NCBI GenBank assembly: GCA_052327205.1
Contig: JBMRGM010000035.1
Location: 52,452,001 to 52,516,000 of the forward strand
Reading direction: 5' to 3'
Origin: Somniosus microcephalus
Taxonomy: Eukaryota
DNA length: 64,000 nucleotides
Of the stretch, positions 20,576 through 64,000 are shown piece by piece. The position numbers and the translations under genes are program-made. The stretch's first letter is position 1. Each line of letters begins with the position of its first letter. The notes under the pieces were generated by a model, which was not told where the DNA came from, searched no databases, and saw only the letters and a program-made list of their open reading frames with translations.

Positions 20576-20613
20576 TTAGTGGGGGGGAAGTTTTAAGAGC
20601 GCGAAAAATAAAA

Positions 20614-31240: not shown

Positions 31241-31288
31241 TTATCGTTCCTGTAAAGAAAAATAAAGGGGCCAGTCGTCACCAGCCAA

Positions 31289-37075: not shown

Positions 37076-37093
37076 ATCCTGTTCGTGACGCCA
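37076..37093 (-). promoter_or_regulatory. Primer binding site complementary to the 3' end of tRNA-Ser(CGA)
   Basis: Minus strand TGGCGTCACGAACAGGAT, 2 nt from the LTR end. Plus strand ATCCTGTTCGTGACGCCA matches the 3' 18 nt of a vertebrate tRNA-Ser(CGA) as I recall it. Splice donor AAGG|GTGAGT nearby at about 37033. Confidence 0.82.
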
Positions 37094-37095
37094 AT

Positions 37096-41071: not shown

Positions 41072-43459
41072 ATGTAGATTATCAGGCCCTGGGGATTTAT
41101 CGGCCTTCAATCCTATCAATTTCCCTAACACCATTTCCCTACAAATACTGATTTCTTTCAGTTCCTCCCTTTCATCAGACCCTATGTTCCCCGACATCTC
41201 TCGGAGGTTATTTGTGTCTTCCTTTGTGAAGACAGAACCAAAATATGTATTTAATTGGTCTGCTATTTCTTTGTTCCCCATTATTAATTCCCCTGATTCT
41301 GATTGCATGGGACCTACACTTGACTTCACCAATCTTTTTCTCTTCACATATCTATAAAAGCTTTTACAGTCAGTTTTTATGTTCCCTTGCAAGTTTACTC
41401 TCGTATTCTATTGTCCCCTTAATTAATCCCTTTGTCCTCCTTTGTTGAATCCTAAACTGCTCCCAATCCTCAGGTTTACTGCTTTTTCTGGCCAATTTAT
41501 ATGTCCTCCTTGGATCTTATGCTATCCCTAATTTCCCTTGTTAGCCACGGTTGAGTCACCTTTTTTTGTTTTATTTTTATGCCAAACTGGGATGAACAAA
41601 TTCTGTAGTTCACCCATGCGGTCTTTGAATGTTTGCCATTGCCTATCCACCGTCAACCGTTTGAGTGACATTCCCCAATCAATCCTACCCAACTCGCGCC
41701 TCAGACCTTCGTAGTTTCCATTATTTAAATTGAGGACCCTTGTTTCTGAGTCAACTACTTCATTCTCCATTTTAATGAAGAATTATATCATATATTGATC
41801 GCTCCGACCCAAGGGGCCTCGTACAACAAGATTGCTAATGAATCCTTTCTTGTTACATAATACCCAGTCTAAGATGGCCTGATCTCTGGTTGGTTCCTCG
41901 ACATATTGGTCCAGGAAACCATCCCGTAAACACTCCAGGAATTCCTCCTCCACAGTATTGTTACTAATTTGGTTAGCCCAATCTATATGTAGATTAAAGT
42001 CACCCATGATGACTGCTGTGCCCTTATTGCACGCTTCTCTAATTTCCCTTTTAATTCCATCCACAATCTCCGCTTACTGTATGGAGGTCTATATACCACT
42101 CCCACTAACGTTTTCTGCCCCTTGGTATTTCTCAGCTCTACCCATACAGATTCCACATCATCAGAGCAAATATCCTTCCTTACAATTGTGTTAATCCCTT
42201 CTTTAACCAGCAATGCTACCCCACCTCCCTTTCCGTTTTGCCTATCTTTCCTGAATATTGAATACTCCTGGATGTTGAGTTCCCAGCATTGGCCACCCTG
42301 GAGCCATGTTTTTGTAATCCCAATCAAATCATATTCGTTTACCTCTATTTGCACAACTAATTCATCCACCTTATGATGAAACACACTCACTGACATAGTG
42401 TGTACATCATAACCCACCGCCAGAGACACACTGTGAACTGTAATACACTTCTACTGACCTCAGGAATATTAACACTCTGACAGAGACCCCAGGTTAATAT
42501 CACACTCACTGCGACACTCTGTCCTTATGTTTATACTGCCAAATGCTGACAGTAATCAATAACACACTCCCACAGAGCATTGGCTCATATTTGCAATGAG
42601 AGGGAGAGAAAACCTCGTACATATTAACACAGTCCCGGTATAAATATTAACTGAATCACAGAATGCCTGGCATAAAATAAAACATTACCAAAGACAGTCT
42701 TTGTGCAATAAAATTCTGCTACAAATCCACAATAAATATTAACACCCGTTTAGAGACATATTGTTCATAGTGACACTCTGTCATGGATTTCCTGTGGGAA
42801 AATCTTGTTCACTCTCTCTACTTTCCCCTCATTCTCTCTCACTTATTCTATTTGCAGTATGTACTGGAGCTGACACTGAGACACACACGGGCTATACAGT
42901 GCCAGACAGGAGTGAAGCGTTCCCTTTTACCCGCTGTGTGCTGTACATATACAGGAGCTGATACTGAGACACACATGGGCCATATAGTACCAGATAGGAG
43001 TGAATTGTTCCTTCTACAAGCTGTGTACTGTATATCACAGAGTCAGAGAGTCCATCGCCACAGAAGGAGGCCATTCGGCCCATCAAGTCCATGCCGACTC
43101 GCTGTAGAGCAATCCAGTCAGTCCAATTGCCCCACTCTATCCCTGCAGCCCTGCAAGTTTATTTCCCTCAAGTGCTTATCAAACCTCCCTTTGAAAACAT
43201 TGAGTGTCTCCGCTTCCACCACTTCCGTCGGCAGTGAATTCCAGTTCAACACCACTCACTGTAAGAAGATTTTTCCTCACATTCCCCCCTGTATCAAATC
43301 TGTGTCCCCTAGTCCTTGTACCATCAACCAGTGAGAACAGCCTTTCCCCGTCTAGCCTTTCCAAACCCGTCATAATCTTGTACACCTTGTACATCTCTAT
43401 CAAATCACCACAAGGGAAGAAGATGTTACCATGTGCGGCGAGTCCAAAACTAGGGGTGA

Positions 43460-43715
43460 TCAGTGATATCTGCTCCTGCTATTGCCTGAAGACAGCTGAT
43501 TGACAGCGCAGCCCCCAATCGGGGCCCGGCGCAGCGACCCACACCCCACCCATTTTCGCAGTCGGAGGCGGGGTCGCTGCGCAGGGCCCCGATTGGTGGC
43601 TGCGGATTTGAATCCCGCATCCGTTAAACCGCCTCAGCGGCAGTGACGTCATGTAACCCGGCAACGCGGGCTTTGTGACATCAGCAGCCCAGCAATGGGG
43701 GCCCTCCCTGCCCCT
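43460..43715 (-). promoter_or_regulatory. CpG-island promoter copy 3, inverted and lacking the first exon
   Basis: Reverse complement of about 14404-14655 (GTGACGTCATGTAACCCGGCAAC, TTTGAA, CCAATCGGGGCCCGG). Confidence 0.75.
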
Positions 43716-44473
43716 GGTGCCAGGTTACTGAGGTCAGATTTGTACCACACTAGGCCGTAAATCGGTAGACTGCCTGTTCCGTGCCGAGCAAGTGCCTTCA
43801 AAAGCCTCTTAAACCCTTTCTCTCCGTCACTGCTTTCAATCCACCTACAACCTTAACCCGTGTGTGTGTGTTTCACCGTGTCTGTCTCTCAATATACAGA
43901 CACACAAAACCCTGCCTATCAATCTGAGTCTTGAATTTTTCCAGCTCCAGCTTCAACAGCTTTTTGGGGAGAGAATTCCCGATTTCTACTACCCTTTGTG
44001 TGAGGAAGTACTTCCTGACATCACACCTGATCGGCCTAGCTTTAATTTTAAGGTTTTGCCCCTTGTTCTGGACTCTCCCACCAGATGAAATAGTATTTCT
44101 TGATCATCTTAAACACCTCAGTGATATCACCCTTAATTTTCTATATTCAAGGAAGTAAAAGGCTAGTCTATGACACCTGTCCTCCTCATTTAAACCTTTC
44201 AGCCCGGGTATCATTGTGGTGAATCTGTGCCGAAACCCCGCAAAAGCTAATACATCATTCTTGAGGTACGAGGTTCAGAATGAAATGGGTTCTTCCCTTG
44301 CATGTTTTAGTATACTCGGATGTAATTCATCCAGTCCTGATGATTTATCATCTCTAAGTTTTACTAGTTTATAAATTCAGGAACAGAAATGGTATGGAGT
44401 GGGATGGGGGACAGAGTAATTGGCAATGTAGAGGGAGCTCTGTATTGTACCTGCCCTTGCAGTGCTCGATGCT

Positions 44474-46002
44474 CCAGGGTGGATAAAGGGGAACCAGTAG
44501 ATGTAATGTATTTGGATTTCCAGAAGGCATTCGATAAAGAACCGCATAAAAGTTTACTACACAAGATAAGAGCTCATGGTGTTGGGGGTACAGGAAACTT
44601 TTTTTTATCTGGGACCGACGTGGTGCCGGTTTATCAAAAATTCCGGATAACTGAGTGCTATAGTAAAAGATACGGAGAGCTGAGAGCTCCGTATAAAGCA
44701 ACAAACCCTGTTGCTTAGCAACAGGTGCAGAACAATGGCCACAAGTTCCAAGCATCTCTGTAGCTTAGCAACAGCTGCAGCCACACCCAATTGCACAGCA
44801 ACAGATCGAGGAAGGCAAGTAATATGAAGTAAAACTTACCTGAACCACCTACTGAATTTTGCCGGTTAACCGAGATTTCCGGTTATTTAGGTGCCGGTAA
44901 ATAGAAGTTTCCTGTAATATATTAGATTGGATAGGGGATTGGCTAACGAACAGAAAACAGAGAGTCGGAATAAATGGGTCATTTTCAGGTTGGCAAACTG
45001 TAACTAGTGGGGTGCCACAGGGATCAGTGCTGGGGCCTCAACTATTTACAATCTATTAATGACTTGGATGTACTGTAGCCAAATTTGCTGACAATACAAA
45101 GATAGGTGGGAAAGCAAGTTGTGAGGAGTACACAGAGTCTGCAAAGGGATATAGATAGGTTAAGTGAGTGGGCAAAAATTTGGCAGCTGGAGTATAATGT
45201 GAGAAAATGTGAGGTTATTCACTTTGGTAGGAAGAGTAAAAGAGCAAAATCTTATTTAAGTGGAGAGACTATAGAATGCTGCGGTACAGAGGGATCTGGG
45301 AGTCCTCGTCCATGAAACACAAAAAGTTAGCATGTAGGTACAGCAAGTAATTAGGAAGGCAAATGGAATATTGGCCTTTATTGCAGGGGGATGGAGTATA
45401 AAAGTAGGGAAGTCTTGCTGCAGCTGTACAGGGCGTTGGTGAGACCACACCTGGAGTACTGCGAACAGTTTGGGTCACCTTATTTAAGGAAGGATATACT
45501 TGCATTGGAGGCAGTTCAGAGACGGTTCAGGAGGTTGATTCTGGAGATGAAGGGGTTGTCTTATGAAGAAAGGTTGAGCAGGTTGGGCCTATACTCATTG
45601 GAGTTTAGGAGAATGAGAGGTGATCTTATTGAAACATAATATTCTGAGGGAGCTTGACAGGGTAGATGCAGGGAGGATGTTTCCTCTCGTGGGGGAATCT
45701 AGAAATAGGGGGCATAGTTTCAGAATAAGTGGTTGCCCATTTAAAATGGAGATGAGGAGGAATTTCTTCTCAGGGTTGTGAATCTTTGGAATTCTCTACC
45801 CCAGAGAGCTGTGGAGACTGTCATTGAATATATTCAAGGCGGAGATAGACAGATTTTTGAAAAACAGGGGAATCGAGGGTTATGGGGAAACGGCCGGAAA
45901 GTGGAGTTGAGGCCAAAATCAGATCGGCCATGATCTTGTTGAATGGCGGAGCAGGTTCGAGGGACCGAATGGCCAACTCCAGCTCCTATTTCTTATTTTC
46001 TT
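44474..46002 (+). mobile_element. Duplicate of the CR1 insertion at 10575-11775
   Basis: Same 5' junction (GATGCTCCAGGG.GGATAAAGGGGAACC) and same 3' flank (GCTGATACTCT). Confidence 0.88.
44591..44914. mobile_element. Tc1/mariner (Tigger-like) MITE with TA duplication
   Basis: TA|CAGGAAACTT...AAGTTTCCTG|TA. Absent from the paralogous CR1 at about 10690. Confidence 0.82.
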
Positions 46003-47052
46003 GTGCTGATACTCTATAAAGTGGAAGTAGAAACATAGGAACAGGAACAGGAGAAGGCATTCAGCTCCTCGAGCCTGTTCCCCCATTCAATGAAATCATG
46101 GCAGTTCTGTATCTTAACTGCATCCACCTGCCTTGGCTCAATATCCTTTTATACCCTTGCCTGGCAAAAATCTACCACTCTCAGAATTAAAATTATTAAT
46201 TGCGCTTGTATTTGCTTTTTGTTTGAGAGAATTCCACACTTCTACCACCCTTTGTGTGAAGAAGTGTTTCCTAACTTCTCCTGAATGGCCTGGATTTGAT
46301 TTTAAGACTATGTCCCCTTGTCCCAGACTCCTCCACCAGTGGAAATAGTTTCTCTCTCTCTACCTGAACAATTCCTTTCAACATCCTAAAAACCTGCATC
46401 AAATTAAATCACCCCTTAACCTTCTATATTCTAGGGAATATGTAATCTCTCCTCATAATGTAACCCTTGGAGCCCTGGTAACATTCTGGTCTATCTGTGC
46501 TGCACTCTCTCCAAGGCCAGTATATCCTTCCTGAGGTGCGGTGCCCAGAACTGAATGCAATTCTCCAGATGGGGTCTTTCCAGAACTCTCTACAGCTGAA
46601 GCACCAACATTCCATTAGCCTCTTTAATTATTATTGTACCCGTCCACTAGCTTTTACTGATTTAAGTACTTGGAGCTCTAAATCTCTCTGCTCATCCACA
46701 GCTCCTAGCTTCTCGCCAGTTAGAGAGGTGTATGTGTCTGTGTGTCAATCTGTGTGGCTGTGTATGCGTTTATTTGTATATTGTGATCTATGTATGTGTA
46801 CATGCTTGTGTATGTGCTTCTGTGGGCATGTCTCTACATGAGTGTGTCTGCATGTCTGTGGTTATGTGTGTCTATGTACATGTGGGTCTACGTTTGTGTC
46901 TGTGAGGTTGTCTGATCCACCATCCCTTTGCTCTGTTTCTTTCTAAATACGGTTCCGTACCAATGTGTCTGGGCCATTCACCTCCACAGAAAGTGCTGAA
47001 CTTTCTGTTTCAATTGGTGCATTCTCATTAATTTGATTCTGGTATTTAACAG

Positions 47053-48412
47053 CAGCAAACAACTCCTGCAAAACCACAGCAACTGAATCTCTATTTGGAA
47101 TAGTTCACCAGTCACGGCGACTGCTCCAGAGCAACAAAGGAACAGGAGTAGGCCATTGAGCCCCTCGAGCCTGTTCTGCCATTCAATGAGATCATGGCTG
47201 ATCTGCACGTTGGCCCATATCCTTTAATACCTTTAGTTAACAAAAAGCTATCAATCTCTGATTTAAAATTAACAATTGATCTAGCATCACTTGCCATTTG
47301 CGGATGAAAGTTCCAAACTTCTACCTCCCATTGTGTGTAAAAGTGTTTCCTAATTTCACTCCTGAAAGGTCTGGCTCAAATTTTTAGACTATGCCCCCTA
47401 GTCCTAGAATTCCCAACCAGTGGAAATAGTTTCTCTCTCTCTACCCTATCTATTCCCCATAATATCTTGAAAACTTCAATCAGATCACCCCTTAGACTTC
47501 TAAATTCTAGGGATTATAACCCTAGTTTGTGTAATCTCTCCTCGGAACAACCCTTGGAGTCCGGGTATCATTCTGGTAAACCTACGCTGCACTCCCTCCA
47601 AGGCCAATATATCCATCCTAAGGTGTGGTGCCCAGAACTGCTCACTGTACTCCAGGTGTGGTCTAACCGGGGTTTTGTATAGCTGCAGCATAACCTCTAC
47701 CCCTCTGTACTCTGGTCCACTAGACATAAAAGCCAGCATTCCATTAGCCTTTTTGATTATTTTCTGTACCTGTTCATGACATTTTAATGATCTCTGTACC
47801 TGGACCCCCAAGTCTCTTTGGACCTCCACTATTTTTGAGCCTTTCACAATTTAGAACGTACCCTGTTGTATCATTTTTAGGTCCAAAGTGGATGACTTCA
47901 CATTTGCCTACACTGAAATCCATTTGCCACAGTTTTACCCATTCACATAATCTATCGATATCACTTTGTAATTTTATGCTTTCATCTACACTCCCTACAA
48001 TGCAGCCTATCTTTGTGTCATCGCAGATTTAGATATATGACTTTCTATGCCATCATCTAAGTTGTTAATAAATACTGTTAATAGTTGAGGCCCCAACACA
48101 GATCCCTGTGGGACACCACAGTCACATCCTGCCAATTTGAGTACGTATCCATTATCCCTACTCTCTGCCTCCTGCAGCTCAGCTAATTTCCTAACTAGGT
48201 CAATAATTTGCAATGAATTCCTACTATCACCAAATTCTTCCACTCTGCTTGTGTGAAAGATCCAGTGATGGATTCCCGCCAGCCCGAGCTCTCCACGTTC
48301 TCACTGAATGAAACCTTCCTTCACGGGAAGCAGGCTCTGTTTGATTGTTTAGGTCCCGTAACCCCTGACCCTGTCTTACTGCTGTCAGAATAATGGGCTC
48401 TACTCAAATAAA
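47053..48412 (+). pseudogene. Second decayed defensin-like terminal exon plus 3'UTR, split by an antisense CR1 (about 47130-48210)
   Basis: 47053-47128 matches 26925-27000 (here GAC TGC where the other copy has GAC TGA). The 3'UTR from 48254 matches 63584 onward, with AATAAA at 48407. Confidence 0.65.
47130..48210 (-). mobile_element. 5'-truncated CR1 LINE
   Basis: Minus-strand [22 protein letters not shown] and a CR1 3'UTR. Confidence 0.85.
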
Positions 48413-48783
48413 ATTTACTGCATTGATCACCGCTTCACATCCGTGTCTTGTTTCTCTTTAGGATCAGTGTGTCCGAGGACAAGGTGTTCGGGGTGGATTG
48501 AGGCTGGGTGCAGATTTGGAAATCGCAGGAAATGGGAGGGGGAAACCGCTGCAGGGAATCTCTGCAAGTGCCTAAACACATTCAGGAAGGTACTGAGATA
48601 AAACGGGTGTCCCAGAGTTTCAGCACTCTGACCGATTGGATTCAGCATATCTCACTTACAGAATCATAGAATGAACCAGCACAGAAGGAAGCCCTTCGGC
48701 CGATTGACGCTGCACCGGCTCTTTCACAGAGTAATCCAGTTTGTCCCCCTCCCCCGCTCTTTCCCCATATCACGGCAATTATT

Positions 48784-48918
48784 AGTACGATAGCAAAATA
48801 CTGCAGATGTTGGAAATCCGAAATAACAACAGAAAATGCTGGAAAAACTCAGCAAGTCAGGCAACCTCCACGGATGTTGCCTGACTTGCTGAGTTTTTCC
48901 AGCATTTTCTGTTGTTAT
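48784..48918. mobile_element. Penelope-like end forming a 43-bp perfect inverted repeat, flanked by a target duplication
   Basis: Arms 48823-48865 and 48876-48918 with a 10-nt loop. CACGGCAATTATT at 48771-48783 and 48919-48931. Confidence 0.75.
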
Positions 48919-49724
48919 CACGGCAATTATTTCTCCTTCACGTATTTAGCCAATTCCATTTTGATGGCTATTCCTGAATCTGTATCCAGCACCCTATCAG
49001 TCAGTCATTCCAAATTCTAACCACTCGTTGCATAAACACATTTTTCCTCATGTCACCTCTGATTCTATTGACAATCACATTAAATCTCTCGTTATCGACG
49101 CTTCAGCCATTAGAGAGAGATTCTCATTATTGACTCTCTGAACCCTTCATGATTTTAAACTCCTATCAAATCTCTACTTGGCCTTCCCCGCTCCAAGGAG
49201 AAAACCCCGTCTTCTCCAGTCTATCCATGTAACAGTAATCCCTCATCCCTGAAACCATTCTAGTAAATCTCTTCTGTACCCTCTCCAAAACATTCTCATC
49301 CATCCTAAAGTGTAGAGCCCAGAATTGGACACACTACTCCAGCTGGGACCGCACTAGTGTTTTATATCGGTTTAACACATTGTTCTGACTGTTGTTAACC
49401 TGTCCTCCCCCCAAAGGTTTGTGCACAAACAACCCCAGGTCTCGTTCTCGCACCCCCTTTAAAATTGGAACATTCAGATTGTGTTGTCTCTCCTCATTCC
49501 TCCGACCAATCTGTATCACCTCACACTTTCTGTGTTGAACTTCGTCCACTATTCCAGCCTGTCTATGTTGTCTTGAAGTTTATTACCATCTTCCTCACTC
49601 TTTACTGCACTTCCACATTTCGTGTCATCTGTACATTTCTAAATTCTGCTCTGTATCCCCAAGTTCATGGGTTTCCTCAGGCAGACTGAAATGAGACATA
49701 ATCTACATTAGACCCACAGACACT

Positions 49725-50995
49725 ATCTAACCCGTGCTGTACCTGCCCAGGGAATTTTCGATGGGACATTGTAGAAGGAGCTTTAGTCTTCGGCTAACCA
49801 GTGCTGTACCTGCCCTGAGAGTGCTTGATGGGACAGTGTAGAGGGAGCAATACTCTGCATCTAACCCGAGCTGTACCTGCCCTGAGAGTGTTTAATGGGA
49901 CAGTGTAGACTGAGCTTTACTCTGTTTCTGTCCTGCACTGCACCTGCGCTGGGAGTGTTTGATGGGACAATGTCGATGGAGCTTTACTCTGTATCTAACC
50001 TGTGCTTTACCTGCCCTGGGAGGTTTTGATAGGGACAGTGTAGAGTGAGCTTTATTCTGTATCTAACCCGTGCTGTACTTGCCCTGAGTGATTAATGGGA
50101 CAGTGTCGACTGAGTTTTACTCTGTTTCTGTCCTGTGCTTCACCTGCCCTGGGAGTGTTTGATGGGACAGTGTAGAGGGAGCCTTACCCTGTAACTAACC
50201 CAAGTAGTGCCTGCCCTGAGAGTTTTTGATAGGGACAGTGTAGAGGGAACATTACTCTGTATCTAACCCGTGCTGTACCTACCCTGGGAGTGTTTGATGG
50301 GATGCTGCAGAGGGGGCTTTACTCTGTATCTAACCTGTGCTGTACCTGCCCTGGGAGAGTTTGATGGGACAGTGTAGAGTGAGCTTTACTCTGTATCTAA
50401 CCCGTGCTGTACCTGTCCTGGGAGTGTTTGATGGGACAGTGCAGAGGGAGCTATTCTGTGCAACTAACCCGTGCTGTACCTGCCCTGAGAGTTTTTGATA
50501 GGGACAGTGAAGACTGAGCTTTACTTTGTTTCTTTCCTGCACTGCACCTGCCTTGGGAGTGTTTGATGGGACAGTGTAGAGGAAGCTTTACTCTGTATCT
50601 AACCCGTGCTGTACCTACCCTGGGAGTGTTTGATGGGGACAGTGTAGAGGGCACATTACTTTGTATCTAACCTGTGCTGTACCTACCCTGGGAGTGTTTG
50701 ATGGGATGCTGCAGAGTGAGCTTTACTCTGTATCTTATCCGTGCTGAACCTGCACTGAATTTTTTTGATGGGACAGTTTGAGTGATCTTTACTCAGTTTC
50801 TGTCTTGTGCTGTACCTCCACTGGGAGTGATTGATGTGACAATGTAGAGTCAACTTTACTCTCTATATCTGTCCTGTGCTGTACCTGCCCTGGGAGTGTT
50901 TGATGGGGACCGTGTCGAGGGAGATTTACTCTGTATCTCTCCCGTGCTGTACCTGCCCTGGGAGTGTTTGATGGGGCAGTGTAAATGGAGTTTGA
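49725..50995. repeat. 67-bp satellite array, roughly 19 diverged units
   Basis: Same unit as 15367-15647. Confidence 0.93.
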
Positions 50996-51999
50996 CCGGG
51001 GACCCATGTGAAGCTGGCAGTATAACTCAGATCTGCTGGATAACCCTGCTCTGAAGTCAGTGCCTGTCTCAAAACCTGTACTGACTGAACAAAATCTCAT
51101 TGCTTTAAAGTTAGTGATTATAACCTGACATCGATATGATATGATAGAGTAAGAAAACTTCGAGAAATATTAAACTGAACAGAGAAGGAGCGATTAAAAA
51201 AAAAAATCTCTTTCCGTCTCTCTGCCTCTTTCTCTCTTACTATGCCTCATTCCGGCGCGCTCTCGCGCTCTCTCATCTTTCTCTCTGCCTCGCTGTCCTT
51301 TACTCTTTCAGCCTTTCTCTTCACTTCCATTTGGTCCCTCTTTTTGCCTCTCTCTGTCTCCCTTCCCTTCTCTGTCTCCCTTCCCCTCTCTCTCTCCCTA
51401 CCACCTCACCCCCCTCCCCTCCCGTCTGTCAGTTTCTACCTTCTCAGTCAAGATTCCTCACCTAACTGCGCTCTCTGAACACAACCACTTTATCACTGAG
51501 CCCAGACTGTGCTCTGAACACATTGCATGAGCTGGTCACAGCTTCTTCACCCCCCAGTTTTAAAATGTGCTTTCCAGGATGTGTCCGGTCCCACCAGGGG
51601 CTTGGAGTCCTGCAAGATTTCGCTGTTAATCTAGAGGGAAGCTTGCTTTTTATTCTAACCTCTGCTGCACCTCTTCCGCCACATCTCATTCATCCCCATT
51701 CCTGAATTCATTTTTTTACATTTCATCGTCCACTGACATCTCCGCCCACATATGTACACATTGCCTCCGATGTGCTCCTCTCTGTAAATCTACTGGGCCT
51801 TGTTTTTCAAGATTTTTGTCAGCCTGCCTCTGTAATTGAAGCAGTTTGGTCATTTTGTAAGTTTATCTGCAATGTTTCAATAATTGGCAAGCGATTTCTG
51901 CTGATCTGCTGAGCGTATTTCCATAGGACACAGATGCCTCAGGAGAGCAGGCATCCAAACCAGGTTAACATGACACTGAAAATGTTATTCTACAGTCCA

Positions 52000-53760
52000 G
52001 CTAACAGTGGAAGGGAATTGGAGGGAAAATATGTCAGTACATCTATAAAATAAGTCAAATACAAATCCTAATCATGGGAGATTTCAACAACACCAAATAA
52101 TCTGGCAAGGAGAGGTAGGGAAAGGGGAAAAGGGAATGGAGAATTTACAGTGTGTTCAGGACTCCTTTCTTACACAGAACGTAAGAAGCCCAACAAGAGA
52201 GGGATCAGTGATGGATCTATAATGGGAAATGAACCAGAGCAGATAAGAGACAGACAGAGAGATAGAACAGCAGTGGGAAATACTTACAAAGGTGATCAAT
52301 TGAGTTCAGGAGGAAGATATTCCACTAAAATAAACAAGAATAAACTAGCCAATAATGAAACACCATGGAAAAGGGCAAAATTTAAACAAAAGGAAAGGCA
52401 GACACTGAGTACAGTGACAATAAAGGAGAGGATGAGAAAAGGAGTAGGGCGAGGTTGGGAAAGAAGCAAAAAAACAATTAGGAAGGCGAAAAGGAACTGC
52501 GACATTAAATTATCAAGTAATATGCCAAGAAATAGTAAAAAGTAATCTACAGACCCACAAAAGAAAAGGTAAAACAAGATAGGGTCAGGGCCACTAAAGG
52601 ATGCAGAAGATAAACTCGCAGGTAATGACAGCAAAATGGCAGAAATATTGGAGAATTACTTTGCCTCAGTTTTTAACCAGGTCGACTAACAAGGTGGATA
52701 TGACATTGCAAGAGGAGATCAAAAAAGATACCAAGACCTTTAAAATTGAAAGGGGAAAATAACTGATAAACTAGTAAAAGTTAGAGAGGATAAAGCGGCG
52801 GGTCTGGATGTGTTAATTCACACATACTAAACGAAGCAAGGAAGAGATAGCAGCGGCACTAATATATTTACTCAGAATTGTTGGTACAATATCAAAATTT
52901 GTGGATGACACCAAATTTGGGATTGTAATCAATACTGAGGAGGATTGTGACAATACAAGATGTTAATAAACTTGGGTGATGGGCGTGTGAAGGGCAAATT
53001 AATTTCAATACAGATAGGTGTGAGGTGGTGCATTTCCTTGGAAAGTAAGTGTCTAAATGGGGTAGAGGAGCAAAGGGATCTGGAGGAACAGCAGTACAAA
53101 TCGTTAAAAGCAAGCTAATAAGGCCATGGAAATGCAAACAAAGCATTGGAGTTCATTTCTAGAGTAAGAGAATTGCAAAGCAGAGAAGTTATGTTAAACT
53201 TATATAGAACCTTGGTTACACCCCACTTGGAGTACTGTATACAGTTCTGGTCTCCATATTACAGTAAGGGTATAGAGTCACTGGAGAAGGTGCAAAAAAG
53301 ATTTACACGCATTATACCGTAACTGAGAGGTTCTTAGTATTCTGAATGACTGAATAGGCTGGGGCTCTTTCTCTCGAAAAGGGAAGGCTGAGCGATGATC
53401 TAATAGAGACCTTTATAATTCTGAAGGGGTTTGATGGGGTAGATATAGAGATGTTACTACTTGTGGGGAGTCCAAAATCAGGGGTCATAAATATAAGATA
53501 GTTACTAATAAATCCAATAAGAAATTCAGGAGAAACTTCTTCACCCAGAGAGTGGTTAGAATGTAGAGCTTGCTGGCACATGGAGTAGTTGAGGTGAATA
53601 GCAGAGTGTCTTTAAGGGGAAGCTAGAGAAGTACACGAGAGAGAAAGGTATAGAAGGATATGATAGGGTGAGGTGAAGTAAGGTGGGTGGAGACTCGTGT
53701 GGAACATAAACACCGGCATGGACCTGGTGGACTGAATGGCCTGTTTCTGTGCTGTAAATT
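52000..53760 (+). mobile_element. Old, heavily deleted CR1 relic (duplicated at 55075-56800, 15850-18060 plus 24550-25195, and 6475-6980 plus 9697-10130)
   Basis: Degenerate APE/RT words and a CR1 3'UTR. The copies are collinear. Confidence 0.7.
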
Positions 53761-54149
53761 CTATGTAATTCTGTAGTGAATTCTGAACAGACACGGTACA
53801 ACACTCGAAACAATCATCAGCAAGGCCTGGGTGTCACAGAGGGCCAAAGCTCTGACCTTTCACCCCTACCGATCTGAAGGTCTTGTGTAACATGAATGTG
53901 GGGAGTTCAAACACTGTCCTTGGTGAGAGGTCAGATTTGTACCACACTCGGCCCTAAGTTGGCAGACTGGCTGTTTCATGCCAAACACGTCCCTTCAGAA
54001 GCCTGTTTAAAACCTCTCACTCCGTCACTGATTTCAATCCACCTACAACCTTAACCCTCTCCCTCCTGCTCAGTCTGTGTGTGTGCCTATCTGGACGTGC
54101 GTGTGTTCTGTCTGTCTGTACGTGTATGCATGTCAGTGTCTGTTCATGT

Positions 54150-55072
54150 TTTTGTGTGTGTGTTTCTTGGCACCATGTGCAGATCCCGCATCTATATTAC
54201 CCTCTATATTCCGCACAGTGCCAGTTTCTGAGCTGGTGTCTGAGTGTCTGATGCAGTGACGTTTGGTGGGCCATCTTCTTCTTCTCCACTTTCCTCCATT
54301 ATTTCGGGGACAGGCTACGTGGGTGGCAGATCTTGGTCATCTGAAAGCAGAAAGGCACAAGTGTCAGGTTATGATGAGGGGAGGGGGGAAAGCAAGATAT
54401 CCATGCATGCAGCATCAGCAGCTTGTAAGTGAGAAGAGCTTGTGGGATGAGGGGATGTGGGATATGAGAAGGAGGATTAGGAATGAGCAGAGCGTTATTG
54501 CCCCCAAGGGCTTCAACTTCCCCGTTTTCGTGGCTTCGGTGACTGCCCCTCCAATCATGTCGAGCACTGTCTCCTCCAGTTGGCAAAGGTCTGTAAAGCG
54601 GTTTGGCCGCTTCCCGTCTGCCGTTGCTCGCGGCGGTTGTGAGCTACCTTGGCCTGCAAGAAAAAGGGAAGTGTGTCAGTGAGTGCAGTGAGTGTTTGGG
54701 TGATGTGCCTGCCTTAGTTGAATAGCTCTTAGTATGTGCAAGGTGTGAGATGTGGCTGTGAGTGTTGCAGCAGTGGTAAGGTTGTGAGGGTGAAAGGAAG
54801 CTATGATTGTGAGGTCTGTGTGGTGAAAGGTAGGTGAATGATGGGGGTGTGGTATATTGAGCAGTGTCTGAGGCTTGTGGTGCAGATGCTGGGATATGAC
54901 ATTTGCTGAAGCCTTCACTCACCTTGACCTGCCGTGTGAGGTCGTTAAACTTCTTGCGGCACTGGATCCATGTCCGCGGGACGACACTAATGACCGTGAC
55001 ATGATACTGTTGGCCGTGATGTACCAGCTATCTCCTGCCACAGCCTTCTCGAAGTGTGCACTGATGGCTTCC
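54150..55072 (-). mobile_element. PIF/Harbinger-like element fragment with a Myb/SANT-like exon (duplicate of part of 57170-61521)
   Basis: Minus strand RTWIQCRKKFNDLTRQVK|GTGAGT. Confidence 0.65.
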
Positions 55073-57689
55073 TGATGGATCTATAAAGGGTGATGAACCA
55101 GAGCAGATAAGAGAAGTGAGCTTCGGTGAAAATCTAGACAATATCAATCTCAACATAATAAGGTTTATGATTTGAGAAAGACAAAAATAATCATTTGGAA
55201 AAAGCTGATTGAGGTGATGTAAATGGAGCTAGTGAAGATAAATTGGAACGGAAGAGACAGAAAAAGAGAGAGAGCAGCAGTGGGAAATATATAAAAGGGT
55301 GATCAGTAGAGTTCAGGAGGAATATATTCCACTAAAATAAACAATAAACTAGCCAATAATGAAGCACCATGGATGAATAAAGAGATGAGGGCAAAATTGA
55401 AACTAAAGAAAAAGGCAGAGACTGAGTACAGTGACAATAAAGGAAAGGATGACAAAAGGGAATAGGAAGAGATTGGGAAAGAAATTTAAAAAAAACAATT
55501 AGGAAGGCGAAAAGGAATTGCGACATTAAATTATCAAGTAATATAAAAAGAAATAGTAAATAGTAAAATCTACAGACACACAACAAAAGGTAAAACAGGA
55601 TAGGGACAGAGCCACTAAAGGATGCACAAGATAAACTCGCAGGTAATGACAGCGAAATGGCAGGAAATGCCTCAGTTTTTAAACTGGCTGACTAACGAGG
55701 TGGATATGACCTTGCAAGAGGAGATCAAAAAAGATATCAAGACCGTTAAAATTGAAAGGGGAAAATAACTGATAAACTAGCAGAAGTTTGAGAGGATAAA
55801 ATCGCAGGTCTGGATGTGTTAATTCACACAGACTAAATGGAGCAAGGGAAGAGATAGCAGAGGCACTAATATATTTACTCGGAATTGTTGGTACAGTTTC
55901 AAAATTTGTGGATGATGTCAAATTTGGGATTTTAATCAATATTGAAGAGGATTGTGACAATACAAGATGTTAAACTTGGATGATGGGTGTGTAAATGGCA
56001 AATTAATTTCAATATAGATCGGTATGAGGTGGTGAATTTTGGTAGGAGGAGTAAGGAGGCTACGAGCTCCTTGGATAGCAAGTGACTAAATGTGGTAGAG
56101 GAGCAAAGGGATCTCGGGGAACAGATGTACAAATCATTAAAAGCAGGTTAACAAGGCCATGAAAATGCAAACCAAGCACTGGGGTTCATTTCTAGAGTAA
56201 GAGAATTGCAAAGCAGAGAAGTTATATTAAACGTGTACAGACTTTGGTTAGACCACACTTGGAGCACTGTGTACAGTTCTGGTCTCCAAATTACGAAAAG
56301 TATATCGAGACACTGGAGAAGGTGCAAAATAGGATTGACGAGAATTATACCAGAACTGAGAGGTTCTAAGTATCCAGAATGACTGAACATGTTGGGGCTC
56401 TTTCTCTAGAAAAGAGAAGGCTGAGCAATGTCTAATAGAGATCTTTATATTTATGAAGGGCTTTGATGGGGTAGATGTAGAGAAGATGATCCCACTTTAG
56501 GGAGTCGCAAACTAGGGATCATAAACATAAGATGGTCATTAATAATTGCAATAATGAACTCGGGAGAAACCTCTTTACCCAGAGAGTGGTTAGAATGTAA
56601 AGCTTGCTGGCAAATGGAGTAGTTGAGGTGAATAGCAGAGTGCCTTTAAGGGGCAACCAGATAGGTATATGATGGAGAAAGGAATAGAAGGATATGATGG
56701 TAGGATGAGGTGAAGTAAGGGGGGAGGAGGTTGGTGTGGAGCATAAACACCGGCATGGACCTGTTGGACTGAATGGCCTGTTTCTGCGCTGTAAATACTA
56801 TGTAATTCTATCGTGAATTCTGAATAGACACAGTACAGCTCTCGAAACAAACTTCAGCGAGAGGCTAGGTGTCACAGAGGGTCAAAACTCTGACCTTTCT
56901 CCCCTACCGATCTGAAGGTTTTGTGTAAAATGAATGTAGGGAGTTCAAACACAGTCCTTGGTGAGAGGTCAGATTTGTACCACACTGGGCCCTAAATCGA
57001 CAGACTGGCTGTTACGTGCCGAGCAAGTGTCTTTAAAAGCCTGTTTAAAACCTCTCTCTCCGTCACTGATCTCAATCCACCTACAACCGTAACCCTTTCC
57101 CTCCTGCTCTGTGTGTGTGTCTGTATGTATGTGCGTGTTATCAGTCTGTCTACGTGTATGCATGGCAGTGTCTGTGTGTGTGTTTCTTGGCACCATGTGC
57201 AGATCCCGCATCTATATTACCCTCTACATTCCGCGCAGTGCCAGTTTCTGAGCTGCTGTCTGAGTGTCGGATGCAGTGACGTGTGGTGGGCCATCTTCTT
57301 CATCTCCACTTTCCTCCATTATTTCGGGGACAGGCTATGCGGGTGACAGATCTTGGTCATCTGAAATCAGAAAGGCACAAGAGTCAGGTTATGATGAGGG
57401 GAGGGGGGAAAGCAAGATATCCATGTATATAGCATCAGCAGCTTGTAAGTGAGAAGAGGTTGTGGGATGAGGGGATGTGGGATATGAGAAGAAGGATTAG
57501 GAATGAGCATTATTGACCCCCAGGGCTGCAACTTCCCCGTTGTTGCGGCCTCGGTGACTTCCCCTCCAATCATGTCGAGCACTGTCTCCTCCAGTTGGCA
57601 AAGGCCTGTACAGCGGTTTGGCCGCCTCCCGTCTGCCGCTGCTCACGGTGGTTGTGAGCCACCTTGGCCTGCAAGAGAAAGGGAAGTGT

Positions 57690-58092
57690 GTCAGTGAGTG
57701 CAGTGAGTGTTTGGTGATGTGTCTGTCAAAGTTGAATAGCTGTCGGTGTGTGCAAGGTGTGAGATGTGGCTGTGAGTGCAGTGAGTGTTTGTGTGATGTG
57801 TCTGTCAAAGTTGAATAGCTGTCGGTGTGTGCAAGGTGTGAGATGTGTCAGTGAGTGCAGTGAGTGTTTGTGTGATGTGTCTGTCAAAGTTGAATAGCTG
57901 TCGGTGTGTGCAAGGTGTGAGATGTGTCAGTGAGTGCAGTGAGTGTTTGGGTGATGTGTCTGCCAAAGTTGAATCGCTGTCGGTGTGTGCAAGGTGTGAG
58001 ATGTGTCAGTGAGTGCAGTGAGTGTTTGTGTGATGTGTCTGTCAAAGTTGAATAGCTGTCGGTGTGTGCAAGGTGTGAGATGTGTCAGTGAG
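57690..58092. repeat. 79-bp tandem repeat, about 5 units
   Basis: TGTCAGTGAGTG recurs at 57846, 57925, 58004 and 58083. Only one unit in the paralogue at about 54675-54760. Confidence 0.9.
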
Positions 58093-59417
58093 TGTTGCAG
58101 CAATGGTAAGGTTGTAAGGGTGAAATGAAGCTATGATTGTGAGGTCTGAGTGGTGAAAGGTCGGTCAGTGATGGGGGTGTGATGCATTGAGCAGTGTCCG
58201 AGGCTTGTGGTGCAGATGCTGGGATATGACATTTGCTGAAGCCTTCACTCACCTTGACCTGCCGTGTGAGGTCGCTAAACTTCTTGCGGCACTGTATCCA
58301 TGTCCGCGGGACAACACTATTGACCGTGACATGATACTGTTGACCGTGATGTAGCTAATGTTACCCCACTATTCAAAAAAGGTGGTAGAGAAAAAGCGGG
58401 GGATTATAGACCGATAAGCCTGACATCGGTAGTGGGGAAAATGCTAGCGTCCATTATAAAAGATGTAATAGCAGAGCACTTGGAAAGCAGTGACGGGATC
58501 GGACAAAGTCAACATGGATTTACAAAAGGTAAATCATGCTTGACTAATCTACTGGAATTTTTGGAGGATGTAACTGGTAAAATAGATAAGGGAGAACCAG
58601 TGGATGTGGTATACTTGGACTTTCAGAAGGCTTTCGATAAGGTCCCACATAAGAGATTAGCGTGCAAAATTAAGGCACATGGGATTGGGGGCAAGGTATT
58701 GACTTGAATAGAGAACTGTTTGGCAGACAGAAAGCAAAGAGTTGGAATAAACGGGTCGTTTTCCGAGTGGCAGGGAGTGACTAGTGGGGTACCGCAAGGA
58801 TCGGTCCTAGGACCCCAGCTGTTAACAATATATATTAATGATCTGGACGAGGGAATTGGATGTAATATTTCCAAATTTGCAGACGACACAAAGCTGGGTG
58901 GGAGGCTATGCTGTGAGGAGGATGTCGTGAAACTCCAGTACGATTTGGACAGGTTGGGTGGTTGGGCAGACACATGGCAAATGCACTATAATGTGGATAA
59001 ATGTGAGGTTATCCACTTTGGTGGCAAAAACAGGACGGCAGATTATTATTTGAATGGCAATAGATTGGGAGAAGGGGAAGTGCAAAGAGACCTGGGTGTC
59101 CTTGTGCACCAGTCGCTGAAGGTAAGCATGCAGGTGCAGCAGGCGGTTAAGAAGGCAAATGGTATGTTGGCCTTCGTAGCACGAGGGTTCGAGTACAGGA
59201 AAAAGGATGTCTTGCTACAGTTGTACAGGGCCTTGGTGAGACCGCACCTTGAGTATTGTGTGCAGTTTTGGTCGCCTTACCTGAGGAAGGACGTTCTTGC
59301 CATGGAAGGAGTGCAGCGAAGATTCACCAGGCTGATACCTGGGATGGCAGGAATGACGTATGAGGAGAGATTGTGTCAATTGGGCTTATACTCACTGGAG
59401 TTTAGAAGATTGAGAGG

Positions 59418-60681
59418 TGTAAGGATTCCGGGGGCTTCTTTTAAACTGGTTTAAGGTAATCTACCTGGCCAGCAGTCTTTTTGCTGCTGCACTCTAAACC
59501 AGTTTACAAACAGCGGTTTCGAATCGCTACCCCTCCTTTAGTTCTGAGTGGAGGAACTTATAATTAATGATATTAAAACGGAACAAGTGGTTTGGATGAG
59601 AGCAAAAATCAAGCTTTATTAACTAAAAGAAACTATAATCAAAAATACCAAACTATCCCACACGAACACAGTGAAATTGTAAAACTATATAACGGGGGTT
59701 GCAGACATTGAAAACGAGGGATACAATGGCTACAATGTTATTTAAACAATCTTAGCAATTCCCTTAAATCACCATCCCCCCTTAACTCCTGCTTGGTTGC
59801 CTTGTTGAGGAGTCAGAAACTCTGCTCACATGTGGTCCAGCAAAGAGGAAGAGGAAGAGAGAGAGAGAGAGAGAGAGCTCACCTATGGTCCCAGGAAGTC
59901 AAGAGAGCGAAATAGCTTCAGCATCTATCTTTATACCTGGTGAGCCCCTCCCGTTCTGCCTTGCAAGGCTGTGTGCAAAATTCCCCACCCAAAAGGGTCC
60001 AATACACAAGAGAAAGCTGTGATAGGTTAACTCAAAGTGGTTGGATTGAGTTAATGTGATTTTCGGAGCTCCCTGTGCTGAAACAAAAGGGAGATACGAC
60101 TGCTCTATTGTCCAGTACTGGGGTGATTTAAAATCCATTCAAATGTTAACGCTTCCCGTTCATGATACAAAAGTCTCTTCTGCAGTTTAGATGTCCTCCA
60201 CTCGATATACAAACAAATGCTAATAGCATTCAGTTGCTTTGTAAACAAAGCATTGACCTTTGTCTTCATCGAACCTTACTTCCAGACATACAAAGCTGCA
60301 TTCCAAGCCTCTTTTGTCATTCGGCCATGTGATGCGACTGCCACTCGGCCTCGGGCGACTGTCTGTGTGGAGTTTGCACATTCTCCCCGTGTTTGCGTGG
60401 GTTTCCTCCGGGTGCTCCGGTTTCCTCCCACAGTCCAAAGATGTGCGGGTTAGGTTGATTGGCTATGATAAAATTGACCCTTAGTGTTGGGGGGATTAAA
60501 TACGTGGAGTTACGGGGATAGGGTGGGATATGTGTTGGTGTAGGGGTTACGGGGATCGGGTGGGATATGTGTCGGTGCAGGCTCGATGGGCCGAAATGGC
60601 CTCTATCTGCACTGTGGGGCTTCTGTGATACTTTAATCAAAAAAATGAATCTTCAGAACTGTAAATTATTGCGAATTCTTA
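59418..60681 (-). mobile_element. Probable solo LTR inside the CR1, GAGG flanks
   Basis: Termini TGTAAGGATTC...GAATTCTTA (inverted, terminal CA missing). Minus-strand AATAAA near 59615. Removal restores CR1 LRGDL. Confidence 0.65.
60334..60623 (+). mobile_element. V-SINE (HE1-like), 5'-truncated, TGTGAT flanks
   Basis: V-domain text GTGTGGAGTTTGCACATTCTCCCCGTG...GGGTTTCCTCCGGGTGCTCCGGTTTCCTCCCACAGTCCAAAG and a CR1-like 3' end. Confidence 0.85.
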
Positions 60682-61799
60682 GAGGGGATCTCATGCAAAC
60701 CTACAAAATTCTGTCAGGCCTGGACAGACTAGATGCAGGAAGGATGTTTCTGATGGCCGGGGAGTCCAGAACTAGGGATCACCGTCTAAGGATAAGGGGT
60801 AAGCCATTTAGGACTGCAATGAGGAGGAATTTCTTCACCAAGGGAGTGGTGAACCTGTGGAATTCTCTGCCACAGAGGGCGGTGGAGGCCAGTTCATTAA
60901 ATATATTCAAGAAAGAGTTGGATATATTTCTTAAGGCTCAAGGGATATGGGGAGAAGGCAGGGACAGGGTACTAACTTTGCATGATCAGCCATGATCTCA
61001 TTGAATGGCGGAGCAGGCTCGAAGGGCCGAATGGGCTACTCCTGCTCCTATCTTCTATGTTTCTATGTGATGTACCCAGCTATCTCCTGCCACAGCCTTC
61101 TCGAAGTGTGCACTGATGGCTTCCTGCCACGCTGCAGGAACAGGACAGCCTGCCTCCTCTCCACTGCCACGACCAATGCCTCCAGAGCCGCATCGGAGGA
61201 CCTTGTGGCTCGTTCTCTTTGCTGCTGCTGAGACTTGTGGGCCAACTGCAATTCCAACCCCTACTTCAGTGACAATGAGGTGCTGCTGCATCAAAGCACC
61301 TCCACTCTAAGTAGTGGAGAAACACTAGGCCACACATTACAGGCCATTAGACTGCACAAGATATTAGCCCACCTGTTTAGCGCTGTGATCAGCACTACAA
61401 TCATGTAAATGAGCAGACAGCATGAATTGTGCATGCTGCCTGGGCCACTCTGAACGGGGGCAGCCAAATAGCACTGGGCCATGACACCGCCCGTTTTCGG
61501 GCCATATCCAATTTCTAGGCCTAGGTTTGATGGGTTAAAAGTCCTGTTGAGAACATAAGGACATAAGAATAAGGAGTAGGAGTAGGCCATACGGCCCTTC
61601 CAGCCGGCTCCGCCTATCAAAAATACCATGGCTGATCTTTGACCTCAACTCCACTTCCCCGCCTGATTCCCATAATGTTTGTGGACCAGCTGCATCATGC
61701 CAGCTGAGCTCAGGAGTTCAGACCTGGAGTTGGGCCCAAACACACAACCTTGTCTTCTGAAAGATAGAGAACTGCCAACTGGGTCCAGCTGCCAACTGA

Positions 61800-61900
61800 T
61801 CCACGTCACATAAAAAGGAAACGCCTTTTCCCAGGATATCTCCAGAGAACAGAGCCACTCCCCGTGTGTGTGACTATAAATGCAGCAAACTCGGAGTCCG
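61800..61900 (+). promoter_or_regulatory. TATA-box promoter of the defensin-like gene
   Basis: TATAAA at 61875-61880, 84 nt upstream of the ATG. Half-CRE ACGTCA and a STAT-like TTCCCAGGA upstream (weak evidence). Confidence 0.6.
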
Positions 61901-61958
61901 GATTCAGAACATTTCCACTCCAGCCGCCTTAATCTGACTCTGGAAAACATCACAGAAG

Positions 61959-62019
61959 ATGAAAGCTCTGCTCTTGCTTCTTGGATTCCTGGTGCTGACT
62001 CAGGCCAGCCTCACTGGAG
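61959..62019 (+). CDS. Beta-defensin-like gene exon 1, signal peptide MKALLLLLGFLVLTQASLTG
   Basis: Good Kozak context (AAGATG), classic signal peptide, 61-nt phase-1 exon. The expected donor reads G|GGGAGA (non-canonical). In-phase GT donors exist at 62029 and 62068. Confidence 0.72.
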
Positions 62020-62785
62020 GGGAGATCGGTGGAGGCGCCAATTGGAAGATATTAGGAGGAGGAAGAGGTAGATTTGGAGGAGTAGGAATAGGTTTTGGTT
62101 TCTAGGTTTCTCTGATCTCTCCGCAGTCAGTGTCCAGTCAGTTTTATGTTTTAAACTATTGTATTCTCTGTTTGAATGTCACAGTTTGATTAATTGAGTG
62201 AAGGTGATTGTAAGAAAGTCTGAAGAATTTAACCTGAACCAGTTCCACGGGTAAATCCCCCGATTATTCAGCGGGTACCTCAGTGGGTCAAGGGAATGGC
62301 GGGTGTTTGCTGATCCAAACAGACCAGCAATAAAAGCACAAATTACTGGCCGGTGCCGAGTGGGCGGATCTCAGCCGCAGCATTGACCCGGTTAGGAGAC
62401 TCTGTAATTGGCCTCAGTACCCAGGTACTGCGGAGGGGAAACTCCCAGTTGTTGCTTCCGATCACTGCTACCCGCTGCAAAGTGTGAGAGTGCGGACTCT
62501 GTGTGAGGACCGGAGCGGGAGATCCTTCAGTCCCTTTCCCCCACACTCACTGTCCAGTCTCACAGATGAAGAATGGTGAATTGGGAGCGATGCTGGAGGT
62601 GTGAGAGGAACCGGTCCCCAGACAAGAGTCAGCTTTTCATTACAGGAGGGTAGGGAATGGGATCAAAAAGGTTTCAAAACAGGTTTATTTAATTGGAATA
62701 ATTCTGCAGCCTTCATAGAGATCGGGATGTGAGAACACGGACTAAGTAGAGGAGGCAAGCGGTGAAATGATCAATTGCCAGTAGC

Positions 62786-63205
62786 TGGGTGTCAGTTTGG
62801 CTCAGTTGGGAGTTGAGTGAACAAGTTGTGGGTTGATGCCCCAGTCCAGTACATACAGCCCAGCACTGGGGGAGTGCTGCTCTGTTGGAGGTGTCATGTT
62901 GTGGATGAAACGTTAAACGGAGACCCTGTCTACCTGTTCATGGGGCAGGAAACATCTGGTGACATTATTTGAAGAGCTGGGAGTTCTCCCGGTGTCTTGG
63001 ACCGACATCACTCTCTCATCCAACATGAGCAGAGACTCCCCATCCTGTCCAATCTCATTTGCTGTTTGTGGGACTTTGCTATGAGCTAATTGGCTGCCAC
63101 ATTTCCTACAAAACAGTGTCGGCACTTCAGAAACAAGCCCTGGTCTGTGAAACTCTTTGGGCCCTTCTGGTGCCGGGAAAGGTTCTCCATCAATGTCAGA
63201 TCTTT
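62786..63205 (+). mobile_element. Deu-domain SINE (SacSINE1-like), decayed, in intron 1
   Basis: tRNA-like head TGGCTCAGTTGG, Deu core CGTTAAAC...GGAGTTCTCCCGGTGTC...TTGCTGTTTGTGGGA...AATTGGCTGCC. Confidence 0.75.
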
Positions 63206-63228
63206 CCTCTCTGTGTCTCTGGTCTCAG

Positions 63229-63290
63229 ATAGCGGGTGTGGTGGGCTCCTTTCTGAGGAAATCCCCTTGGGCTGCCCTTCAGGACAAAGA
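63229..63290 (+). CDS. Beta-defensin-like gene exon 2, propiece DSGCGGLLSEEIPLGCPSGQR
   Basis: Polypyrimidine tract plus CAG acceptor and a consensus GTGAGT donor. Phases 1 and 0 join exons 1 and 3 in frame. Confidence 0.7.
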
Positions 63291-63436
63291 GTGAGTCTGC
63301 ACAGGTCGGGGGAGAGGTGTGGAGTTTCATTAAGTATAAAAGAGTTAATGTTCATGTGTGGTCCAGAGTCAGTCTTAGTAACACTGACAGACTCAGCTTC
63401 ATGTTTTCTCATTGTTCTCCCTCCCTCTGTGTACAG

Positions 63437-63583
63437 AACCATCAATCAATTCATTCTTCATTTTGGATTTTAGTGCCCTGCACCTGGTATGGAGGAGCAT
63501 GTCGTGAGGGCGGCTGTAACAGAGACGAGATGCCTTTCCCAAAAAAGTGCCCTGATATGTTACAATGCTGCTTTCTGAAATGA
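63437..63583 (+). CDS. Beta-defensin-like gene exon 3, six-cysteine domain NHQSIHSSFWILVPCTWYGGACREGGCNRDEMPFPKKCPDMLQCCFLK
   Basis: Pyrimidine tract plus CAG acceptor. C-x6-C-x4-C-x10-C-x5-CC with G-x-C at C2 and Glu four residues after C3. Tandem TGA TGA stop. Confidence 0.82.
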   Translation, partial: NHQSIHSSFWILVPCTWYGGACREGGCNRDEMPFPKKCPDMLQCCFLK

Positions 63584-63738
63584 TGAAAGATCCAGTGACG
63601 GATTCCCACCAGCCCGAGCTCTCCACGTTCTCACTGAATGAAACCTTCCTTCACGGGAAGCAGGCTCTGTTTGATTGTTTAGGTCCCGTAACCCCTGACC
63701 CTGTATTACTGCTGTCAGAATAATGGGCTGTACTCAGA

Positions 63739-63744
63739 AATAAA
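63739..63744 (+). terminator. Polyadenylation signal of the defensin-like gene
   Basis: AATAAA about 155 nt after the stop, followed by a GT-rich tract (GTGTCTTGTTTGTC). Conserved at 27225 and 48407. Confidence 0.75.
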
Positions 63745-64000
63745 ACTTACTGCATTGATCACAGCTTCACATCCGTGTCTTGTTTGTCTTCAGGGTCAAT
63801 GTGTCCGAGGACAAGGTGTTCAGGGATGGGATGAGGCTAGGAGAAGATTTGGGAATCGCAGGAAATGGGAAGAGGAAACCGCTGCAGGGAATCTCTGCAA
63901 GTGCGAAATAACACATTCAGAAAGTTATTGAGATAAGACAGGTGTCCCAGAGTGTCGGCACTCTGACCGTTCAGGGTTCAGGATATCTCGGTTGAACGGA

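Follow-up and report, generated by a model that had tools for sequence, protein, structure and literature searches.

A gene near the 3' end of the window (the whole stretch of 64,000 nucleotides of Somniosus microcephalus DNA that was analysed) was characterised as a two-exon shark gene for a 72-amino-acid, likely secreted precursor with a predicted beta-defensin fold. We consider it a likely host-defence peptide gene within a large family that appears to be positively selected, and assign this reading as a whole a probability of roughly 0.7. The single gene alone is an ordinary family member. The weight of the finding lies in the family, the gene layout proven by RNA and the selection signal, and not in the features that an earlier note on this DNA had called unusual.

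Two raw RNA runs (X15 and X16) were aligned to positions 63200-63640, 24% and 31% of the runs being read, at low depth. In X15, 12 reads had a loose end before position 63472, and the 30-base consensus of these ends agreed completely (1.0) with window positions 62036-62065. The next two bases match both sides of the joint, so the junction lies at 62067|63474 and the intron has GT and AG ends. Sense depth was 13-15 (X15) and 6-7 (X16) from position 63470 onwards; over 63440-63469 it was 0 in X15 and 1 in X16, where coverage is unbroken from 63305 and hence unspliced. Further downstream, sense depth was 12-16 at 63624-63697 and then went down to 1-5 at 63698-63771. This indicated that the gene consists of two exons joined at 62067|63474 and encodes a 72-amino-acid precursor. 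The reading frame stays open beyond 61 nt and offers phase-1 GT sites at 62029, 62068, 62092 and 62098; as alternative donors, 62029, 62092 and 62098 were unused by the 12 X15 junction reads. An automated listing of exon joints contained none at 62067|63474, probably because the expressed siblings of the gene have a 15-nt deletion in exon 1. The coordinates of all features are collected in Table 1.

Table 1. Features of the beta-defensin-like gene and its duplication block, numbered from the first base of the window.
Feature	Position	Strand	Basis
TATA box (TATAAA)	61875..61880	+	Sequence; kept in 15 of the 16 upstream regions aligned, L031 differing by one base
ATG start codon	61959	+	Sequence
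Exon 1, coding part, 109 nt	61959..62067	+	12 X15 junction reads; hydropathy
Exon 1 donor, phase-1 GT	62068	+	X15 junction reads
Single phase-1 GT-AG intron, 1406 nt	62068..63473	+	RNA depth; paralogue deletions, stop and frameshifts
Exon 2, coding part, 110 nt including stop; predicted beta-defensin domain, net charge +1	63474..63583	+	
Stop codon of the six-Cys exon	63581-63583	+	Sequence
3' UTR as far as AATAAA (63739-63744)	63584..63744	+	Sequence; RNA depth
Segmental duplication block with the gene and both remnants; extends some 7 kb beyond the window, about 49 kb in total	21038..64000	+	
Truncated paralogue remnant: final ten codons with the CC pair, stop, 3' UTR	27040..27466	+	
Paralogue remnant, 3' UTR only	48254..48653	+	

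The earlier note had proposed three exons, with a donor after a 61-nt exon 1, a 62-nt middle exon (63229-63290) and an acceptor at 63437. Its pieces add up arithmetically and translate to the 89-amino-acid string that it gave, and the TATA box, the ATG, the Leu-rich N-terminus, the six-Cys exon, the stop and the AATAAA are all present in the sequence. Its splice sites did not hold. The bases at 62020 are GG, neither GT nor GC, and depth rises only from 63470 and not from the supposed acceptor at 63437. Junction reads, which the note had expected at 63290-63437 and into 63229, showed the joint 62067|63474 instead in X15. A phase-1 intron after the signal exon, as in the note, is shown by RNA of the subfamily; it begins at 62068 and not at 62020, and it includes both the proposed middle exon and an unused upstream AG (63435-63436).

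Paralogues of the gene point in the same direction. The middle segment is mostly deleted in L018, L033 and L034 and has a frameshifting 1-nt insertion in L024. The stretch 63437-63473 is interrupted by a stop in L030 and has gained one nucleotide in L033, with the Cys domain still open. The 37 bases before the acceptor at 63474 show intron-like conservation while the adjacent peptide varies, and the pyrimidine-rich end of the intron recurs in distant subfamilies, where it likewise translates to FWI-like letters. Because of the depth, the splice sites and the stop and indels of the paralogues, the "propiece exon" with two extra Cys and the hydrophobic FWILVP segment must be regarded as intron read as protein. 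A resemblance of the 48-amino-acid string to GM2 activator (E 0.07) leans on these intron-derived residues and was dismissed as chance. It is therefore extremely improbable that a three-exon, 89-amino-acid precursor with eight Cys is made: good acceptor and donor sites bound the middle segment, whose frame continues into 63437, the upstream AG is retained in distant subfamilies and a minor form in which the real donor at 62067 is joined in frame to 63229 is conceivable, but the GG donor, zero sense depth over the middle segment in both X15 and X16 and the loss or frameshift of this segment in paralogues with intact Cys exons argue against it. Splicing at the upstream AG would disrupt the reading frame. 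An AG of this kind, out of frame and accompanied by a strong pyrimidine tract, was found 37-45 nt 5' of the used acceptor at nine of 11 loci, and a nearer AG at the other two.

The RNA reads mostly carry sibling alleles and so support the subfamily rather than the exact window copy, which is presumably spliced in the same manner. At position 63517, 12 of 15 X15 reads have the base of L010/L011 and three have the window base, the variant reads beginning at only about two places; the X16 reads agree with L015 at four sites. L010, L011 and L015 are the three among 15 near-identical copies that have the in-frame 15-nt exon-1 deletion, and their splice sites are identical to those of the window gene. 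The RNA runs bear the label of an organism whose best DNA run contains 0.69 of the words, so that they may come from a related species. These alleles raise the question whether the window copy was simply carried along in a recent block duplication and is little used, its siblings with the 15-nt shorter exon 1 being the expressed ones. We regard this as rather doubtful: the whole block, dead remnants included, was duplicated at 98-99% identity, yet the donor and acceptor of the window copy are the same as in the siblings, its promoter region is 98% identical and its frame is intact, three X15 reads carry its base, and another species could have another set of copies. At the level of the family, a passenger copy would be compatible with the host-defence reading. 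Two contig runs (X1 and X5) were rejected as signs of expression; they cover the intron, look like DNA and represent related sequence in two other organisms. Among the listed holders of the stretch, none is recorded as RNA. Sense X16 reads with fixed differences from the window were also seen just 5' of the TATA box (61774-61868, depth 16).

The 72-amino-acid precursor comprises a Leu-rich signal segment, a 17-residue Gly-rich linker ending at residue 36, and the Cys domain. Exon 1 codes for the likely signal peptide (about residues 1-19) and the linker. The N-terminal Leu run has a Kyte-Doolittle mean of up to 3.1 over seven residues, and a hydrophobic N-terminus is kept across the paralogues. 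Cleavage of the signal is expected near residue 16-20, and the linker could possibly be trimmed at an Arg before the domain. The domain has the pattern C-x6-C-x4-C-x10-C-x5-CC, which occurs once in the window and never in 100 mononucleotide-shuffled windows. Its net charge is +1 for the exon-2 peptide, close to neutral as the earlier note had it, and +2 after residue 19, with a pI of 7.7-8.3. The six Cys are invariant in 17 aligned family peptides, a set picked for an intact motif.

The Cys domain was modelled with AlphaFold2, which predicted three strands with a pLDDT of 83.4; three of five models exceeded 80 and two were poor (pLDDT 59 and 48). When the predicted model was compared with 48,161 chains, the six best structural matches were all beta-defensins. 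The best match was human beta-defensin 2 (1fd3; Z 4.8, rmsd 1.3 A over 34 of 35 residues), Z-scores below 5 being modest. These matches suggest a three-stranded beta-defensin fold, and the rmsd of 1.3 A over 34 residues to 1fd3 would imply a C1-C5, C2-C4, C3-C6 disulfide pairing. In profile searches, the window peptide had no Pfam match at E up to 10, neither to PF00711 nor to PF13841. Six of 17 family peptides matched Defensin_beta (PF00711) at E up to 10, below the cut-off (best E 0.002), and the distant member L056 exceeded the cut-off (27.5 against 21 bits). A search with the family profile retrieved human beta-defensin 106 at E 0.004, and an Atlas search gave beta-defensin clusters at 0.85 and 0.84, to be taken as a lead only. 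A word-limited, weak homologue search of protein collections returned eight candidates, none at E up to 0.1, and no shark match to the family was found in the collections searched, which do contain shark proteins. Out of 1.84 billion proteins, one from an insect reached E 5.7e-5; it has two stretches rich in Cys and was taken as a look-alike.

Its motif, signal, intron phase and predicted fold would place the gene among the vertebrate beta-defensins, and its identity as a beta-defensin is very likely. The earlier suggestion of an unannotated chondrichthyan peptide with a defensin fold is supported by the motif, the family profile and the predicted model. A family of venom or ion-channel peptides with a defensin fold appears very unlikely. 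In venom families, a variable mature exon is combined with conserved non-coding DNA, and the mature region is hypervariable here as well; the same combination is described for a secreted family of gall midges (PMC2955719). Defensin-fold toxins do appear further down the list of structural matches (Z 2.4-3.2), but true beta-defensins score above them (Z 3.9-4.8).

The beta-defensin consensus has been given as C-X4-8-C-X3-5-C-X9-13-C-X4-7-C-C (PMC515299), and the spacing of the window peptide (6-4-10-5-0) fits it, as the earlier note had recognised. Beta- and big defensins are reported to have in common a phase-1 intron that directly precedes the Cys domain (PMC7203481), and the RNA junction places such an intron after 109 coding nt in the window gene. 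Like mammalian-type two-exon beta-defensins (PF00711; 1fd3 hBD-2, 2lwl hBD-6, 5ki9 hBD-4, 1e4s hBD-1), the gene has a signal exon, a phase-1 intron, six Cys in exon 2, similar Cys spacing and predicted fold, and membership in a clustered multigene family; it differs from them in the low identity of the structural alignments (24-27%), the charge of +1 to +2 and the 17-residue Gly-rich linker. The beta-defensin cluster of the Komodo dragon, reported to comprise 66 genes with neutral and anionic members (PMC6716921), is the nearest parallel in size. Reptile and bird clusters resemble the shark family in size, in the presence of cationic, neutral and anionic members and in some C-terminal extensions, and the predicted fold matches mallard AvBD3 (7lzl, Z 4.5) and crocodile CpoBD13 (7t9q, Z 4.2), whereas the shark copies are dispersed over contig C35 (5-74 Mb) and other contigs and 15 of them are about 99% identical.

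The earlier note had likened the gene to three-exon genes of fish. Teleost defb1/defb2 do share the six-Cys beta-defensin motif and a similar precursor length, but teleost beta-defensins are described as having three exons with an extra intron that splits the Cys 4+2 (PMC11541337), and as numbering one to seven per species (PMC11541337, PMC8231796). The shark gene has two exons with all six Cys in exon 2 and thus does not show the teleost-type layout. A two-exon ancestor, with the third exon of teleosts as a later gain, has been proposed (PMC8231796), and the shark gene fits this proposal. Invertebrate big defensins (oyster BigDef1 C-terminal domain, 6qbk; Z 3.5) share the phase-1 intron and an N-terminal extension. 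The shark extension is short, Gly-rich, has a hydropathy near 0 and cannot be aligned between subfamilies, and the 17-residue linker lacks the conserved hydrophobic N-terminal domain of big defensins.

A search of the shark's own genome yielded 55 matches at E up to 10, of which 43 had E <0.05 (34 of them on C35) and nine were identical over the query. Promoter, Pfam and secondary searches added 13 further Cys exons, and the genome contains at least 56 related Cys exons. The motif is intact in 47 of 54 inspected loci and lost in the other seven; three further loci (L036, L037 and L040) showed exon 1 only, and eight UTR-only loci (L044-L051) were classified as remnants, not genes. Scanning the genome with PF00711 gave four matches, and on inspection only L056 proved to be a real member. 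The 15 copies of about 99% identity are alike across exons and intron and differ by 4-17 intron positions each; some of them could be assembly duplicates. The duplication block that carries the gene is 98-99% identical, in aligned pieces, to a copy at G000:C35:51.84-51.89 Mb. Its truncated remnant is 91% identical to positions 63584-63980, no upstream part being found. Copying of a block together with its dead remnants at 98-99% identity points to amplification of the family by large block duplication.

Several side branches of the family were noticed. L054 and L068-L074 (C35 5-70 Mb; one on C37) form a compact acidic subfamily with a 61-nt exon 1 and a short intron; in L054 the intron measures 217 nt and the net charge is about -7, and L070 has lost C1. 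L056 (C35:48.44 Mb), L065 (C35:48.11 Mb) and L066 are distant members, the first two with a C-terminal tail rich in Pro, Asp and Lys. L038 (2715 onward) and L039 are an identical pair with a 7-3-11-6-0 spacing whose C-terminal tail is built of repeats rich in Pro, Ala and Arg. In L022, L023 and L055 (C32), the exon reads through the usual stop and gains two Cys, and exon 1 was not found within 6 kb. L019 and L020 lack a phase-1 GT at the homologous donor position of exon 1 and have intact Cys exons; they are probably splice-dead. In L040 (C12:186.7 Mb), exon 1 is followed by a long tandem array of units of about 73 nt that hold a piece of the intron.

The mature exon has changed much faster than its surroundings. 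In 66 pairs from 12 paralogues, pN of exon 2 was 0.29 as against 0.055 for the 3' UTR; pN was greater than the UTR distance in 65 pairs and greater than pS in 52. The UTR was taken as the reference because the mean intron distance (0.113) is inflated by indels of L032 and L042. The tree of 13 paralogues had lengths of 1.78 (first codon position), 2.54 (second) and 0.88 (third), compared with 0.33 in the UTR and 0.54 in the 5' part of the intron. A one-ratio codon model on these paralogues gave an omega of 2.8-3.1 despite six fixed Cys, and the likelihood ratio test against omega=1 gave p 6e-5 (GY) and 0.003 (MG). The mature exon is thus probably under positive selection with an omega of about 3; recombination may inflate the test, and L016 is a mosaic of two subfamilies. 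The dN/dS comparison that the earlier note had suggested was made here on paralogues of the same genome, and its result is subject to this same effect. An apparently high synonymous divergence (pS 0.21) was recognised as a counting artefact, codons for the same residue differing in 0-4 of 15-32 per pair. The earlier reading had overlooked that the gene belongs to a set of dozens of copies, apparently under positive selection.

Close subfamilies are about 95% identical in promoter, intron and UTR. Between subfamilies, no alignment of the 3' end of exon 1 is possible; the coding length of this exon ranges from 61 to 124 nt, with exon-1 donors other than that of the window gene inferred from position. 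Across 19 modelled paralogues, the net charge after residue 19 extends from -7 to +9. The best explanation of the family includes birth and death, in which block duplication would supply copies, diversifying selection would alter them and many would decay.

Once spliced and translated, the precursor would be secreted and lose its signal near residue 16-20. The fixed disulfide scaffold would then present a hypervariable surface that may bind microbial targets or host receptors, and a fixed scaffold with a surface driven to change is what would be expected in a contest with microbes. From what is generally known of cationic peptides, a net charge of +1 to +2 makes charge-based membrane lysis unlikely as the main mode of the window member, for which binding to a specific target or receptor is more probable than lysis by charge alone. 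A defence role of the peptide is predicted to be probable. Alternatively, the main role of the family might resemble that of epididymal beta-defensins and lie in reproduction or in signalling through receptors, with its rapid change reflecting coevolution with the sperm surface or a receptor. The wide span of charge with +2 here, the strongly acidic subfamily (L054, L068-L074) and the beta-defensins documented in the reproductive tract of mammals would fit this, but many paralogues are cationic (+4 to +9), and the lizard cluster, studied as a set of antimicrobial genes, is reported to have neutral and anionic members too (PMC6716921). We therefore regard such a function as unlikely and prefer host defence.

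Beyond this gene, we cautiously favour the broader view that sharks possess a large, undescribed and transcribed beta-defensin repertoire with a layout of two exons, proposed as ancestral, which has diversified by positive selection on the domain and by replacement of the 3' end of exon 1. If so, each subfamily would have gained a different N-terminal arm, the family would provide the missing test of beta-defensin gene evolution in cartilaginous fish, and its peptides might form a library adapted to high salt and urea. Among the matches listed in a literature search, no paper dealt with shark beta-defensin genes; subscription journals and supplements, where shark genome papers could list such genes, lay mostly outside its scope. 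The available sections of a 2019 review of cartilaginous-fish antimicrobial peptides name no shark defensin (PMC6795676), and in those of another paper defensin occurs only in a reference (PMC10707392). A whole effector class would be absent from inventories of shark immune genes. The finding of a transcribed shark beta-defensin with two exons is relevant to the idea of a two-exon ancestor (PMC8231796), at least 56 loci with an omega near 3 would rival the repertoires of reptiles, and the paralogues offer a testable peptide panel with charges from -7 to +9.

Finally, the genomic neighbourhood was compared with that of other vertebrates. The beta-defensin cluster of amniotes is reported to be flanked by CTSB and TRAM2 (PMC6716921). 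A direct search for these two genes found nothing, and none of the 76 genome matches to Peptidase_C1 (papain family) lies on C35. One of 20 TLC-domain matches does; it is TLCD3B-like and not TRAM2. The TLCD3B-like exon is located 2 Mb before the main cluster, and its four best matches among 98 were from sharks (89-76%), which marks the host as a shark. Bin3 and Eph, which mark the neighbourhood of teleost defb2, had matches on other contigs and none on C35, and mepce/ephb4 synteny was not found. Many Peptidase_C1 matches are packed together at 50-63 Mb of G000:C13, a region that may represent an expanded cathepsin cluster. Within the window, open frames of 180-350 codons on the minus strand (about 29200-36500) resemble gag, protease, reverse transcriptase and integrase, and we take them to belong to an LTR element or provirus; those at 440-3905, 7266-8954, 20551-23358 and 39467-40345 resemble LINE, LTR and DNA-transposon proteins. 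The window is otherwise rich in repeats.
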